In this document: positions 42,195-47,716 of the stretch, piece after piece
Layout of the letters: every line of letters begins with the position of its first letter
How positions within the stretch are numbered: the first letter of the stretch is position 1
Assembly: GCA_963793095.1 (NCBI GenBank)
Contig: CAWBYY010000004.1
Span: 305,107-369,106, forward strand
Reading direction: 5' to 3'
DNA length: 64,000 nucleotides
Source of the DNA: an uncultured Chloroflexia bacterium
GTDB lineage: Bacteria; Chloroflexota; Anaerolineae; Anaerolineales; UBA4823
Notes under the pieces: generated by a model
The model's database searches: none
The model's input: the letters and a program-made list of their open reading frames with translations, nothing else
What the model was told of the DNA's origin: nothing
Translations under genes and position numbers: made by a program

Positions 42195-42705
42195 AAATCA
42201 GAAATTTAGTTATAAGAACCAGGTTTATCTGGGTCTGGGTTCGAATATTGATCCTGAAAGAAACATATTAAAGGCTGTCGAACTGCTGCAAAACATCTTT
42301 CATCTTGCAGGAATATCAAGTGCCTGGGAATCTTTTCCTGTCGGATCTAATGGGCCCAAATTTATTAATGCAGCCTTAAACTTCAATACCGATTTGAACC
42401 TGGATAAATTGAAGCAAGATGTTCTCATTCCGGTTGAAGCCCAATTGGGACGTGTTCGAACCAGCGACAAGTATGCCCCCCGGACAATTGACCTGGATGT
42501 TTTAATTTGGAATGAAGAGACCGTTGATCAAGAGCTGGTGAAACTCCCTCATTTAGCTGTCCCTGTCGCAGAATTATCTCCTGGATTCAGACCATTCAGG
42601 GGAACTGAAACTATCGAGGAAATTGCCGGGGTATTAAATTCAAACAAAGCGCTGGTTTTCTGCCCTGAAATCAGCCAGAAATTAAGAGAATTATTTCGGT
42701 CATAA
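42178..42705 (+). CDS. folK: 6-hydroxymethyl-7,8-dihydropterin pyrophosphokinase
   Basis: [22 protein letters not shown] and LPH. Confidence 0.92.
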
Positions 42706-43335
42706 AACCGGATTCGATCGGCGTGAAATATTTGCCAGAAACTCCTCTCTGGTGGCAAGACTCTGGCGGAAAGCACCCAGCATCGTTGAAGTTGTCATCC
42801 TTGCATCATGTTTTTTTACCCCGCGCATCGTAGCACAAAGATGCAAGCCTTCTACAACTACCGCAACTCCTAATGGGTGCAGTAAAGTATCAATAAATTC
42901 CGCGATCTGACGGGTCATTCTTTCCTGGACCTGAAATCTTTTAGCAAATAAATCAACAATCCTTGGAATTTTTGACAAGCCGATAACTCGTTCACGTGGT
43001 AAATAAGCAACATGCGCACGACCGATGAAAGGCAGTAAATGGTGCTCGCACAGGCTGTAAAATTCAATATCTCTTACGACAACCATTTCGTCATATTTCA
43101 CATCGAATAAGGCATCGTTTACGAGAGATATTGGATCTGTGCGGTACCCTTCAAGTAATTCTTCATACATCCTGGCAACTCTTTCTGGAGTTCGCCTTAA
43201 CCCCTCCCGATTAACATCTTCACCTATCGCCTCAAGCAATTTAAGGATTGATTGTTGAATTCCTTCATAATCAATATCGCTGTCCGAGATCAAATCTGCA
43301 GCATTTTTTATAGCTGTTGTATTATTAAAAGTCAT
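42700..43335 (-). CDS. folE: GTP cyclohydrolase I
   Basis: [37 protein letters not shown] and HLCATMRG. Confidence 0.97.
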
Positions 43336-43336
43336 A

Positions 43337-43906
43337 TTAGCCCACTTCCGGTTCTATCAATCCAAATGAACCATCTCTACGTCGATACAGAACATTTATT
43401 GAATTTGTATTTGCATTAAAAAAGATAAAAAAACTTTCATGACCAAGCAGCTCCATTTGTTCTAATGCTTCAAACTCATCCATTGGTGTCAACATAAACT
43501 GCTTTCTGCGAGCAATCACCGGCTTCAATTCACCCGTGTCTTCTTCTAACAAATCCTGTTCCACCACAAATTCACCTGCTGGCGTCCCATCCCCTCTACC
43601 CCTATATCTTTTCCCTTTATACCTTTCTATTCGGCGCTGGATCTTTTCCAGAGCGATATCAATTGCTGCAAATATATCATCTGCCCTCTCTTCAGACCGC
43701 AAGATAAATCCTTTTCCCCGAACAGTAATCTGGGCTACCTGGCGATCAGCTGCGCTACGGGCAGATTTAATATACGCGAGATCTACCCTTGCTTCTTCAA
43801 TACCAGGTAAATATCTATCCAGCTTGGAGATCTTTTTATCGACATATTCCCTGATTCTTTCTGTAATCTCCATATTTCTTCCTGAGATCTCAACATCTAG
43901 TGTCAT
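43337..43906 (-). CDS. hpf: Long ribosome hibernation promoting factor
   Basis: [21 protein letters not shown]; C-terminal [16 protein letters not shown]...NVLYRRRDG. Confidence 0.94.
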
Positions 43907-43969
43907 CTTTACCTCCAAACACCTGATTATTTTTAGTATTTTGTAACTGACAAACCAGCCAATTTATAA

Positions 43970-44730
43970 TTAACTTACAGCAAAATAGCGTGAACGGGCA
44001 AGAGTGAGGCAAAATACTTCCTTCGCTCCCGCCGTTTTCAAAGCAGCAGCACAGGCTTCCAGTGTGGCGCCGCTTGTTGTGACATCATCAATTAGTAGAA
44101 CTCTTTTTCTTTCCACATAATCCGAATCTGCAAGAAACGCTCCATTAACATTTACCATCCGTTGGGTAAAGGTTAAACCCACCTGGGAGTCAGTCTCCCT
44201 TATTTTTAATAACCCTTTAGTTAGATAAGGTTTTCCAATTGCCAGAGCGACCGGACGGGCTAAAAGCGGGATTGATTGTATCCTCTCTCAAAGTATCGCT
44301 TTTCACCCAATGGAACCGGTATCACTGTATCAGGATTCCAATCATAACCTTCAAGTAACTTGATTAATGGGCGAGCTAAAATCTCTCCGAGCGTTTGATC
44401 GCCGCGGTATTTCAATCTGTGAATAACACTTCTCAGCGAACCTTCGAAATATGCCCATGATCTTAATTTGTCAAAAGAGGGGGTGCGAAGCATACAGTTG
44501 TGACAGGTGGAATATTTATAATTCGGGCGTCCGCACCTATCACATACTCGGTCCGGCAGACGTTGGACAGTTTTCTGGCAATTTTCACACCATCTTGATC
44601 CAAAAACGTCACATCCTCCACAATTGGGTGGGAAAAACAAATCCAATCCCATCCAGGAATATTTATACAAACGATAAACAAACCTTTCCCTTGTTTTTGG
44701 TTGATCAATTAAATTTTGAGATGATTTCAA
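43970..44730 (-). CDS. comF: ComF family phosphoribosyltransferase-like competence protein; one frameshift
   Basis: Double zinc ribbon (FPPNCGGC, CDRC, CHNC), VIHRLKY, PVPL, RGYNQS, then LLIDDVTTSGATL; shift near 44265. Confidence 0.9.
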
Positions 44731-44855
44731 GGATTGATGAGTTAACCTAGTGGGTCAAGGTATTGATAACAAGCATAACAATCAGGCTCATTTGTAATTA
44801 TTGTTTCGATGTGTTTATTCGATTGGTTTCCTTATCCCAGATTGATAAATGAAAA

Positions 44856-45002
44856 TCAGATCGTTTGTAAAAAATCATCAATGTAATTGGTTATCCATGG
44901 CCCCAGTAATTCAATGATCACCCAAACGATAATAACAACTAAAATAATAATAAGGGCATATTCGACCAGGCCCTGCCCGGATTGGTTCGAATCTGGAGAC
45001 AC
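44856..45002 (-). CDS. flp: Flp/Fap (type IVb/Tad) pilin, 48 aa, missed by the ORF track
   Basis: GGAGG SD, GTG start, MSPDSNQSG|QGLVEYALIIILVVIIVWVIIELLGPWITNYIDDFLQTI*: G(-1), E(+5) and Y(+6) Flp motif plus hydrophobic helix. Confidence 0.88.
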   Translation of the reverse strand: MSPDSNQSGQGLVEYALIIILVVIIVWVIIELLGPWITNYIDDFLQTI

Positions 45003-45041
45003 TTGAATAACCTCCATTTATTCTGGATTATTGTTGACCTG

Positions 45042-45070
45042 ATTATAGAAAATTATTAAAGAAAAAGCAA
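45042..45070 (-). promoter_or_regulatory. Promoter of flp (possibly flp-comF-hpf)
   Basis: TTGCTT (45070-45065), 17-nt spacer, TATAAT (45047-45042). Confidence 0.65.
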
Positions 45071-45093: not shown

Positions 45094-46344
45094 TTACCGT
45101 AAATAATCTGAGACTTTTTCCAAAGGCAGCTGGTCAGGATTTACTGCCCACCATTTCACCCAGTAAAGCCCTACTAAAATAACCAGGGGAGTAAGAAAAT
45201 AAATTATCGGGTCCAGGTCAGGCTGTATACCTCTCTGAACGCCATTCAATAATAGGAGCCAGATCCCAATCGAAGTAACCAGCAGAAAAATTACAATTAA
45301 CCATCTCCCAAGCAGTCCCCACCGTTTATACCAGGTAGCCAGAATAAGCATAATCGTCGGGAACAGCAATATGTAGTTTTCCAGAGTGCTGTAAACACCA
45401 ATCAAAGTTGTAGCGGTCAGGGTAACCATTGCAGTCCAGGTGAACCAGCGTTCATCCTTACCAATACTCGACCTCCACTCAATTAGAAGCATGGCTACCA
45501 TCACACCGGTTAGAATCCATCCTGTCTGCTTTCCTACCCCAGGAACCCAGTTCATTAGGATGGAACCGGGAGTACTGATGAACATGATATCGTTGTACCG
45601 GATTATCTGGCGGACATTTTCCAGCAACCAATCCTGAATGAACAGGCTTCCAAAGATGATTAGAAAAACCAAACTACCCAGGAAAGTCCAGATTATTCTC
45701 CAGCGCCCTTTGAATATTGACCAGACAATAATAAATAAATAAAGCATAATTACCATTTGCGGTTTAATGCTGGCCATTGCAAGTAAAACTCCCCCTAAAG
45801 CATCCTGTTTGGAACGGATAGCCAGAAGAGCGCTGGTCACCAGGAAAGCAACTAAAACTGAGACATTGCCACTTATTACTGGCCGAATTCCATGATACCA
45901 GAGAAAAATAAATATAAACAAACCTATTAGCATTAATATAGATGGTCGCCAGTCTACCAGTACCAAACTGACAATTAATAATCCCACCAGAATGAATTCT
46001 AAGAATGTCATCCATAAAGAAAAAGCGGAATCGTGATTCTCAATCAGAGCAAAGGGCACATACAGGATGATTGAATAAAATGGGTATACGAAATAACCTG
46101 GATCTTCATTAGATTTTGCCAACCGTCCATATACTGTTCGTTGAATCTCACTGGTCGCTTGTTCACTGAAAGGATTTGTCCCTTCCATCAGGAAAGATCT
46201 GGTGCCCTGCCAGCGAGGAATAAATTTATTCATGCCCATGTTCTGAGATGCATACTGGTAATTCAACCAGGTTGCGATCCCAATAATTGAAACAATCAAA
46301 ATGATCAACCCAAAGAGCAAAAGATTAGCTCGATTGTTACTCAT
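45094..46344 (-). CDS. GT-C fold membrane glycosyltransferase (GT87/DUF2029-like)
   Basis: Many TMs, GYFVYPFYSIILYVPF, SGNVSVL, MASIKPQ and ENY. Confidence 0.75.
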   Translation of the reverse strand: MSNNRANLLLFGLIILIVSIIGIATWLNYQYASQNMGMNKFIPRWQGTRSFLMEGTNPFSEQATSEIQRTVYGRLAKSNEDPGYFVYPFYSIILYVPFALIENHDSAFSLWMTFLEFILVGLLIVSLVLVDWRPSILMLIGLFIFIFLWYHGIRPVISGNVSVLVAFLVTSALLAIRSKQDALGGVLLAMASIKPQMVIMLYLFIIVWSIFKGRWRIIWTFLGSLVFLIIFGSLFIQDWLLENVRQIIRYNDIMFISTPGSILMNWVPGVGKQTGWILTGVMVAMLLIEWRSSIGKDERWFTWTAMVTLTATTLIGVYSTLENYILLFPTIMLILATWYKRWGLLGRWLIVIFLLVTSIGIWLLLLNGVQRGIQPDLDPIIYFLTPLVILVGLYWVKWWAVNPDQLPLEKVSDYLR

Positions 46345-46487: not shown

Positions 46488-47716
46488 TTAACCCAGGTAT
46501 TCACGCAATTTGCGGCGTATTGCTGGGTGACGCAACCTGCTTAATGCCTGAGCTTCAATCTGGCGGACTCTTTCTCGGGTCACCCCCATTTTACGTCCAA
46601 CCTCTTCCAGAGTATAAGCCTGACCATCCAGCAGACCATATCTTAATTGTAATATCCGGACTTCGCGGGGAGGCAAGCCATCCAGTACAACGTCCAGGTG
46701 TTCACGCAGCAAGTTGAATGTCGCAGTATCGTCAGGCGCGGATATCTCGTCATCCTGAATAAAATCTCCAAGCACTGAAATCTTCCTCGTCATCGGTAGG
46801 TGTCTCCAAAGAAAGCGGCCTGCGCGCAACCTGGATCATATTCTCAACCTTTGAAGGATGGACTTCTAAAGCGGTAGCTAGTTCTTCCACAGTTGGGTCG
46901 CGACCCAATCTCTGTGTGAGCTGGTGCTGGATTCTCAACAGCTTATTAATTTGATCGCCCATGTGTACCGGAACCCGGATCGTCCGACCCTGGTCTGCAA
47001 TCGCCCTTGTAACTGCCTGCCTGATCCACCAGGTCGCATATGTACTGAATTTATGGCCTCGACGGTAATCAAATTTCTTAGCCGCTCTGATCAACCCGAT
47101 ATTGCCTTCCTGAATAAGATCAAGAAATGGCACGCCCCTTCCCATATATTTTTTAGCCACGCTGATGACAAGCCTTGAATTTCGCGGTAATTAGATGTTC
47201 CCTGGCAAGCCATCCATCCTGGACAAATAATTGTAGTTCCTGCCTCCTCCTTACTGTGACATTCCCCCGTGCCAGTTCTTCGCGTGATAACCTGCCCTGT
47301 TCAATTCGCTGTGCAAGTTCAACTTCTTCCTCTGCAGTTAACAAAGGAACCCTCCCAACTTCCTTTAAGTAAAGTCCGATTGTATCGTCTGTGTCAATAT
47401 TGGCAAGGAAGTTTTCTTCTATCGATATTTCACGGCTGACTTCGTCATCGAGATCTTCTTCTTCAGTCAAGTCATCGTCACTGGGTTCAACAGCAGTTAA
47501 TTCGTCAATGTAGGCGATGCCCGCACTCAGCAATGCCGCGAATGCTTCTTCCAGTTGGTCAACATCCTGTTCAGCATCAGGAAATAAATTTAATATATCA
47601 TCAATAGTTACAAAGGACTTCTGCCGTCCCAGTTCAATCAATCTAGCAATTGCTGGGTGCTCTTCCTGCCCTTCTATTTCACTCAGAAATTTATCATCAA
47701 TCATCAGTACTCCCAC
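46488..47716 (-). CDS. sigA: Primary sigma70 factor (regions 1.1-4); two +1 frameshifts
   Basis: [43 protein letters not shown] and TRERVRQIE; extra bases near 47180 and 46779. Confidence 0.93.

Follow-up and report, generated by a model that had tools for sequence, protein, structure and literature searches.

A lone Flp pilin gene upstream of comF-hpf in an Anaerolineales bacterium as a probable relic of a class-wide tad-comF-hpf operon

In Anaerolineales, a conserved and highly transcribed 'Tfp' cluster with the order pilA(flp)-cpaB-cpaE-cpaF-tadB-tadC has been read as encoding an adhesion or aggregation pilus (Xia et al. 2016, PMC4877987). Elsewhere, natural transformation has been found to depend on a Flp pilus in Micrococcus luteus (Angelov et al. 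2015, PMC4322843), and DNA uptake is Tad-dependent in Liberibacter crescens (PMC8513845). The competence gene comF has a described neighbourhood of its own in the streptococcal comFA-comFC-hpf arrangement, where hpf lies directly 3' of comFC and is partly read through in pneumococcus (Slager et al. 2019, PMC6560143); ComFC is described in one account as acting in single-stranded DNA (ssDNA) transport at the membrane (PMC9005727). Here we consider a 64,000-nt stretch of DNA, hereafter the window, from the 4.5-Mb genome bin of an uncultured Anaerolineales bacterium (G000), in which a 48-aa Flp pilin gene is followed on the same strand by comF and hpf. The initial annotation had treated the three genes as a likely co-transcribed unit and had proposed that the pilin and ComF together may mark a competence route based on a Tad pilus.

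The reading we favour, and consider probable, is that this locus is the relic of a tad operon, with the pilin promoter and flp now fused to comF-hpf; no pilus would be made, and the peptide would serve instead as a pilus-independent small membrane protein. The ancestral operon would have had the order (RR-HK)-flp-terminator-cpaB-tadZ-cpaF-tadB-tadC-comF-hpf, RR-HK being a response regulator and kinase pair. In the lineage of the window, which comprises the genus (with the congeners G001 and G002), the relative G007 and a few metagenome-assembled genomes (MAGs), the segment from cpaB to tadC would have been deleted along with the pilin terminator, and the RR-HK pair 5' of flp would have been deleted as well. 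GT87, the pilin promoter, flp and comF-hpf-folE would then have become contiguous, and comF-hpf(-folE) would have been taken over by the former pilin promoter. Flp would have persisted as a small single-pass membrane protein. Strong purifying selection on flp, together with a burst of change once Tad was lost, suggests that its role is independent of the pilus, and ComF and ComEC, the DNA-uptake proteins at the membrane, may take part in it. Today all genes of the locus lie on the minus strand in the order GT87-flp-comF-hpf-folE, with the following features (positions in the window):

45094-46344, minus strand: gene for a GT87-family membrane glycosyltransferase, now immediately 5' of flp
45042-45070, minus strand: sigma-70-like promoter of flp, as read from the sequence (-35 TTGCTT at 45070-45065, 17-nt spacer, -10 TATAAT at 45047-45042)
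45015-45011, minus strand: Shine-Dalgarno (SD) sequence of flp, GGAGG
44856-45002, minus strand: orphan flp, 48 aa, from GTG at 45002 to TGA at 44856, assigned from sequence, homology, dN/dS and hhalign
44731-44855, minus strand: flp-comF spacer of 125 nt, the presumed deletion junction, with no terminator
43970-44730, minus strand: comF, ComFC-type, with double zinc ribbon and phosphoribosyltransferase (PRTase) domains and a TTG start at 44730, in two frames in the assembly
43337-43906, minus strand: hpf, long-form ribosome hibernation promoting factor of 189 aa, SD GGAGG, assigned from domain and TIGR00741 matches
42700-43335, minus strand: folE, GTP cyclohydrolase I, 1 nt past hpf, a conserved downstream neighbour in many relatives

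The ancestral arrangement is well preserved in relatives that still possess Tad genes. On the plus strand of G025 stand, in order, a LuxR-type response regulator, a DegS-like kinase, flp, CpaB/RcpC, TadZ, CpaF, TadB, TadC, ComF, HPF and folE, with Pfam support for Flp_Fap, RcpC/CpaB, a TadZ of REC plus ParA type, T2SSE, two T2SSF domains, ComF and HPF, and with 23 nt from the end of tadC to comF. The same tad-comF-hpf order was found in all nine Tad-positive relatives fetched. Among named Anaerolineales loci anchored on hpf, 71 of 80 carry flp-cpaB-tadZ-cpaF-tadB-tadC-comF-hpf on one strand, including those of the cultured species Ornatilinea apprima P3M-1, Leptolinea tardivitalis YMTK-2 and Anaerolinea thermolimosa IMO-1, and the order extends to 22 of 40 further Anaerolineae families. 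Of the 50 ATPase-positive genomes in an order-level sample, at least 39 have the ATPase gene on the strand of comF, 2.2-2.5 kb 5' of it. Thus, a class-wide genomic link between Tad and ComF is strongly supported by gene order. Some loci depart from the common form. G027 has two tad-comF clusters (C1:4812-5502 and C15:167163-167852), with the comF of one in two frames. At L145 (DUEG01000007) a second flp, with HK, RR and GT87, lies on the opposite strand just downstream of tad-comF-hpf-folE, suggesting that GT87-RR-HK-flp can move or be duplicated as a module. At L112 (CP070639, Anaerolineales bin917) only a tadC-like high-scoring segment is left 5' of comF, with masked bases nearby, and this locus may represent an intermediate stage of tad decay.

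In G000, G001, G002 and G007, by comparison, the order is GT87-flp-comF-hpf-folE, and the segment from cpaB to tadC is missing. Nine Tad-positive members of the family carry a GT87 homologue on the same strand 3-6 kb 5' of RR-HK-flp, and flp thus appears to have survived between two deletions, one downstream (cpaB to tadC) and one upstream (RR-HK). A strong GC hairpin with a U-run follows every single-copy Tad-linked flp examined; this terminator has been lost after the orphan flp of G000, G002 and G007. The promoter and SD are older than the deletions, since TTGC-N17-(C)TATAAT and AAGGAGG stand in the same architecture 5' of flp in Tad-positive relatives. With both cpaB-tadC and the terminator deleted, comF-hpf-folE has been fused to the pilin promoter, and we infer that comF-hpf(-folE) is now transcribed from it. 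On re-reading, the coordinates of flp, its SD and its promoter, as well as its distance of 125 nt from comF, stand as first described; the promoter, whose -35 box matches at only 3 of 6 positions, goes unlisted in a stricter promoter scan. The flp-comF-hpf unit also holds, for no intrinsic terminator or significant RNA structure was found in the flp-comF spacer (z = -0.9), which is itself not conserved among the four genomes. Nor is the gene pair a peculiarity of this genome, recurring as it does in the congeners, G007 and others. We take the adjacency of flp and comF to be a deletion scar.

The identity of the 48-codon open reading frame (ORF) as a pilin gene deserves scrutiny. Its product is MSPDSNQSGQGLVEYALIIILVVIIVWVIIELLGPWITNYIDDFLQTI, in which a short leader, MSPDSNQSG, runs into QGLVEYAL to give a G/XXXXEY site (SG/QGLVEY), followed by the hydrophobic segment ALIIILVVIIVWVIIELLG, predicted as a single helix of about 22 aa, and by a short acidic tail, NYIDDFLQTI. 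This is the architecture of Flp/Fap proteins (PF04964), for which we looked for a short prepilin of about 50-80 aa, a G/XXXXEY site and about 20 hydrophobic residues after it, and flp is the sole small ORF with a G-x4-EY motif in the bin. PF04964 does not match the ORF even at E up to 10, leaving the curated Pfam threshold unreached; a direct Pfam scan gives only weak matches to TadE (0.024) and Class_III signal (0.08), and an NCBIfam scan does not recognise it as Flp. Membership in the family is therefore established through relatives. PF04964 recognises the Flps of five of nine aligned relatives, and the G025 pilin at the equivalent position passes its threshold (Flp_Fap 33.6 bits against a cut-off of 32.2). 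The tblastn search of related genomes that had been proposed for the pilin found homologues in 59 of 61, often in several copies or in tandem (E 1e-9 to 1e-10), and profile-profile alignment (hhalign) of four orphan Flps with 16 Tad-linked Flps gave 99.1%, E 7.5e-19 and 51% identity. Homology to the pilins of tad loci is thus shown by hhalign, by tblastn and by the shared position relative to comF-hpf. Furthermore, all four members of the Tad-less clade (G000, G001, G002 and G007) keep the GTG start and the SD as well as a CTATAATCA box. On this evidence the ORF did not arise by chance but truly belongs to the Flp lineage, though it has diverged, and by position we regard flp as orthologous to the major-pilin gene at the head of the class-wide Anaerolineae operon.

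The absence of tad assembly genes, originally noted for the window, extends to the whole bin. No T2SSE match (CpaF/TadA ATPase) rises above cut-off in G000, G001, G002 or G007, and G000 yields 0 matches to PF00482 (T2SSF, the TadB/TadC platform) and no Pfam match to PF01478 (A24 prepilin peptidase), in scans whose controls recovered the three families from 12-13 of 14 reference genomes. Searching G000 by tblastn with family-level CpaB, CpaF, TadB and TadC found nothing; G025 CpaF returned a P-loop match only (E 0.002), a TadZ query returned receiver domains only, and the unlinked minor-pilin trios of TadE/TadF/TadG type from four Tad-positive relatives gave no match at E up to 1e-5. The prepilin peptidase is a special case. 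A diverged A24 homologue came to light by tblastn outside the window (C4:112562-113125, pairwise E 5e-23), so that G000 is not without any prepilin-peptidase homologue. Its GFGD motif has become YRND (YKND in G001), with both Asp residues aligned, its N-terminal part is missing, and it is only 38% identical to the copy in G001; GFGD is intact in G007 and in Tad-positive relatives. Pfam misses this gene, which has a secD/secF-like neighbour. In contrast to flp, the peptidase is evidently decaying in this genus.

Among competence genes, comEC, dprA and comEA-like genes are present in G000, and comFA was not identified at the locus. The proposed inventory therefore divides: comEA, comEC and dprA exist, whereas tad/cpa genes are absent from G000 and the peptidase is degenerate, and the congeners and G007 likewise lack Tad machinery. 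These results bear directly on the possibility that flp encodes a working Tad pilin, co-expressed with ComF and assembled by machinery encoded elsewhere, so that DNA is taken up here by a Tad pilus. The intact Flp motif, the uninterrupted path from flp to comF, the complement of comEA, comEC and dprA, the class-wide tad-comF linkage and the precedent of Tad-dependent transformation in Micrococcus luteus (PMC4322843) would all accord with it, but G000 lacks T2SSE, T2SSF, CpaB and minor pilins, G001, G002 and G007 lack T2SSE, the contig runs unbroken across the place where the tad genes once stood and shows them deleted, and the catalytic motif of the peptidase is degenerate. We judge such a pilus to be highly improbable; the organism presumably cannot build one. 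Because the Tad machinery was deleted between flp and comF, the gene pair cannot mark a working Tad-pilus uptake route, and what survives of the competence proposal is the observation that tadC abuts comF-hpf in most Anaerolineae.

If flp no longer contributes to a pilus, the pattern of its sequence change should indicate whether it does anything else. The Flp of G000 is 96% identical to that of G002, 83% to that of G001 and 81% to that of G007, with synonymous sites saturated, and dN/dS of 0.017-0.03 at dS of at least 1 indicates strong purifying selection. Across the order, Tad-linked Flp hardly varies. For genome pairs with an HPF identity of 0.70-0.85, median Flp identity is 0.88 between Tad-linked copies, 0.85 between orphans, and 0.55 (at most 0.68) between orphan and Tad-linked copies, a pattern we read as a burst of change following Tad loss and then renewed constraint. 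The divergence in G000 consists of Trp and Glu within the helix and of the acidic tail. That flp is a neutral relic, an ORF which has not yet decayed and has no function of its own, would be understandable for a by-product of deletion, and flp has indeed been lost in some relatives (G019, G146 and G092) while its cleavage motif is degenerate in G051 and in several class-level lineages. However, neutrality is difficult to reconcile with a protein 81-96% conserved where dS is saturated (omega 0.02-0.03) and with an undamaged ORF in 12 of 15 ATPase-less genomes spread over many families. Moreover, the peptidase in the same genomes, decaying to 38% identity between congeners, illustrates relaxed selection over an equal time. 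We therefore think a neutral relic quite improbable.

Alternatively, what is conserved may be a cis-acting leader: the flp promoter, its SD and the translated ORF would be needed for expression of comF-hpf, for instance to couple translation, to stabilise the mRNA or to bring it to the membrane as it is translated, and the peptide would have no role. Constraint on orphan Flp reaches into the extracytoplasmic tail (ITNYIDDFLQTI, and also the GDD[IL]R tail subfamily described below) and thus spans the peptide, which is not required of a leader, and tight coupling is unlikely across an unconserved spacer of 125 nt. A leader role is accordingly improbable in our estimation, even though the ancestral promoter and SD are conserved, the terminator is lost, and the ORF is always found 20-370 nt 5' of comF on the same strand.

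A pilus-independent membrane protein, the reading we prefer, gains from the recurrence of orphan flp in other lineages. T2SSE is also absent from G051 (closed), G052, G059, G067 (100% complete) and G189 (99%). With a Flp hidden Markov model (HMM), Flp-like ORFs were found in many lineages 20-370 nt 5' of comF on the same strand, without Tad genes between; these comprise G048, G051, G052, G059, four MAGs with the order GT87-flp-comF, and 11 more families of the class. Four genomes might have been taken to carry GT87-comF with flp lost, an interpretation ruled out by the HMM, which shows a motif-variant flp kept in each. Such an ORF is kept 5' of comF in 12 of the 15 ATPase-less genomes whose upstream region can be assessed, G051, G189 and G067 included, and in the order-level ATPase-less genomes it is the sole flp-like gene, bar a second match in G002. 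Seven class-level families share the tail L[IL]xGDD[IL]R...W(F)P, several of them without a cleavage motif, and degenerate forms of the site in this subfamily include DSFIEY, GESFVEF and SASLIEL; the GDD[IL]R-tail loci, just 5' of comF, are L198, L199, L213, L215, L221, L222 and L223.

A bolder extension would hold that the Tad pilus of Anaerolineae is the competence pilus, with comF as the last gene of its operon, and that in pilus-less lineages selection keeps the pilin 5' of comF and turns it into a new family of small, Tad-independent membrane proteins (for instance the GDD[IL]R-tail and W/E-helix forms) that work at the membrane with ComF and ComEC in pilus-free DNA uptake or ssDNA handling. 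We offer this as a speculative idea that is unlikely to be correct in full.

Several considerations weigh against the relic reading. We know of no function for an unassembled Flp, and purifying selection was measured over just 48 codons in four genomes. Co-transcription of flp with comF and use of the pilin promoter are deduced from the DNA. The GT87 homologues of Tad-positive relatives are just 35-45% identical, and the second, upstream deletion thus rests on probable but unproven orthology. Among the class-level genomes where a Flp-like gene adjoins comF, some carry T2SSE elsewhere, so that the pilin could be assembled in trans there, though not in the clade of the window. Finally, with the bin at 90% completeness and uneven in composition, a Tad locus could, for G000 alone, have escaped binning. 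Contig GC ranges from 0.435 to 0.514 (C1-C12), and tetranucleotide composition separates C3, C4 and C7 from C1, C5, C8, C9 and C11, with C2 and C12 intermediate, a pattern that compositional domains or some mixing within the bin could explain. A bin of two organisms was nevertheless rejected as an explanation: hpf and comF are single-copy, and the Tad-less state is repeated in G001, G002, G007 and closed genomes. The long ORFs of the window are also without close duplicates in the bin.

The genes downstream of flp can be assigned with varying ease. In the assembly comF is split into an N part (44730-44260, zinc ribbon) and a C part (44182-43970, PRTase), and alignment with G001, G002 and G007 places a single missing base between 44269 and 44268; in these three genomes and in G052, comF is one ORF of about 250 aa. 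The two parts match DZR_2 (38.3 bits) and Pribosyltran (35.9 bits), as expected of a ComF protein, which joins an N-terminal 4-Cys zinc ribbon to a C-terminal type I PRTase domain, and an alignment of 10 relatives shows invariant Cys and DDV.TTG columns. The intact ComF of G002 stays below the curated cut-offs, with 101 bits against 233.6 for TIGR00201 and 112 against 304 for GntX, which are still its best-scoring NCBIfam families; a search of PDB sequences returned generic PRTases only and no ComFC homologue. The break in comF has company. An rpoD-like primary sigma-70 gene 2 kb away (46488-47716, minus strand) is divided into three ORFs (r1.1-r1.2, r2-r3 and r4), and two frame breaks in an essential gene point to assembly indels. 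Compared with G002 there are about 7 frame breaks, the two in rpoD included, across about 38 kb of coding sequence, or about one per 5-6 kb. Further frame changes relative to G002 orthologues lie at about 16000, 21090, 29080 and 29708, and any pseudogene call in the window is suspect. In so indel-prone an assembly the frameshift in comF most probably stems from an assembly error, and a genuine pseudogene is disfavoured as the likeliest reading given the density of breaks.

The product of hpf is recognised as a long-form HPF by PF02482 (85.1 bits, S30AE N-terminal domain), PF16321 (74.3 bits, C-terminal dimerisation domain) and TIGR00741 (80.8 bits against a cut-off of 40.9). Between comF and hpf there is a promoter-like TTGTCA-16-AATAAT (43953-43926, minus strand), and hpf-folE may also possess this separate promoter. 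A second copy of folE lies on contig C2, 59% identical to the FolE probe from G025.

Our findings bear on how Tad pili and their remnants are interpreted. The tad operon abutting comF-hpf across most of the Anaerolineae, cultured species included, is so far the best indication from genomes that 'adhesion' Tad pili, which are abundant on Anaerolineae filaments of wastewater and sediment, may serve DNA uptake, much as in Micrococcus luteus, and the class-wide tadC-comF junction makes it well worth looking for Tad-dependent uptake of DNA in cultured members of the class. Pilins are usually assumed to be useless without their machine. Purifying selection on flp where pilus ATPase and platform are missing contradicts this assumption and points to a pilus-independent role for Flp-like peptides. 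For annotation, an orphan Flp beside comF should not be counted as evidence of a pilus. Our literature search found nothing specific on a tad-comF-hpf supercluster or a Chloroflexota tad-comF link, nor on orphan Flp retention.

Set against the described systems, the locus is familiar in its parts. Like the flp-1/tad locus of Aggregatibacter actinomycetemcomitans and the pilA-cpa locus of Caulobacter crescentus, it encodes a small prepilin in which one hydrophobic helix is combined with a G/XXXXEY site, and its ancestral form would share with them the canonical order of cpaB, tadZ, cpaF, tadB and tadC and the terminator after the pilin; unlike them, G000 is without any assembly gene, the pilin alone remaining and diverged in sequence. 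The cluster described in Anaerolineales (Xia et al. 2016, PMC4877987) is the same one found to be ancestral at this position, although that paper leaves comF, competence and flp-only lineages unmentioned (0 occurrences of comF or competence). The resemblance to M. luteus and L. crescens lies in the use there of Tad pili for DNA uptake with ComEA and ComEC, since Anaerolineae combine tad with comEA, comEC, dprA and comF. In M. luteus, however, the tad clusters have no comF linkage (comF is unmentioned in PMC4322843), whereas in Anaerolineae tadC directly abuts comF. Streptococcal comFA-comFC-hpf shares the comF-hpf order seen here, yet its upstream partner is comFA, where the Anaerolineae have a tad operon or, as in the window, an orphan pilin.

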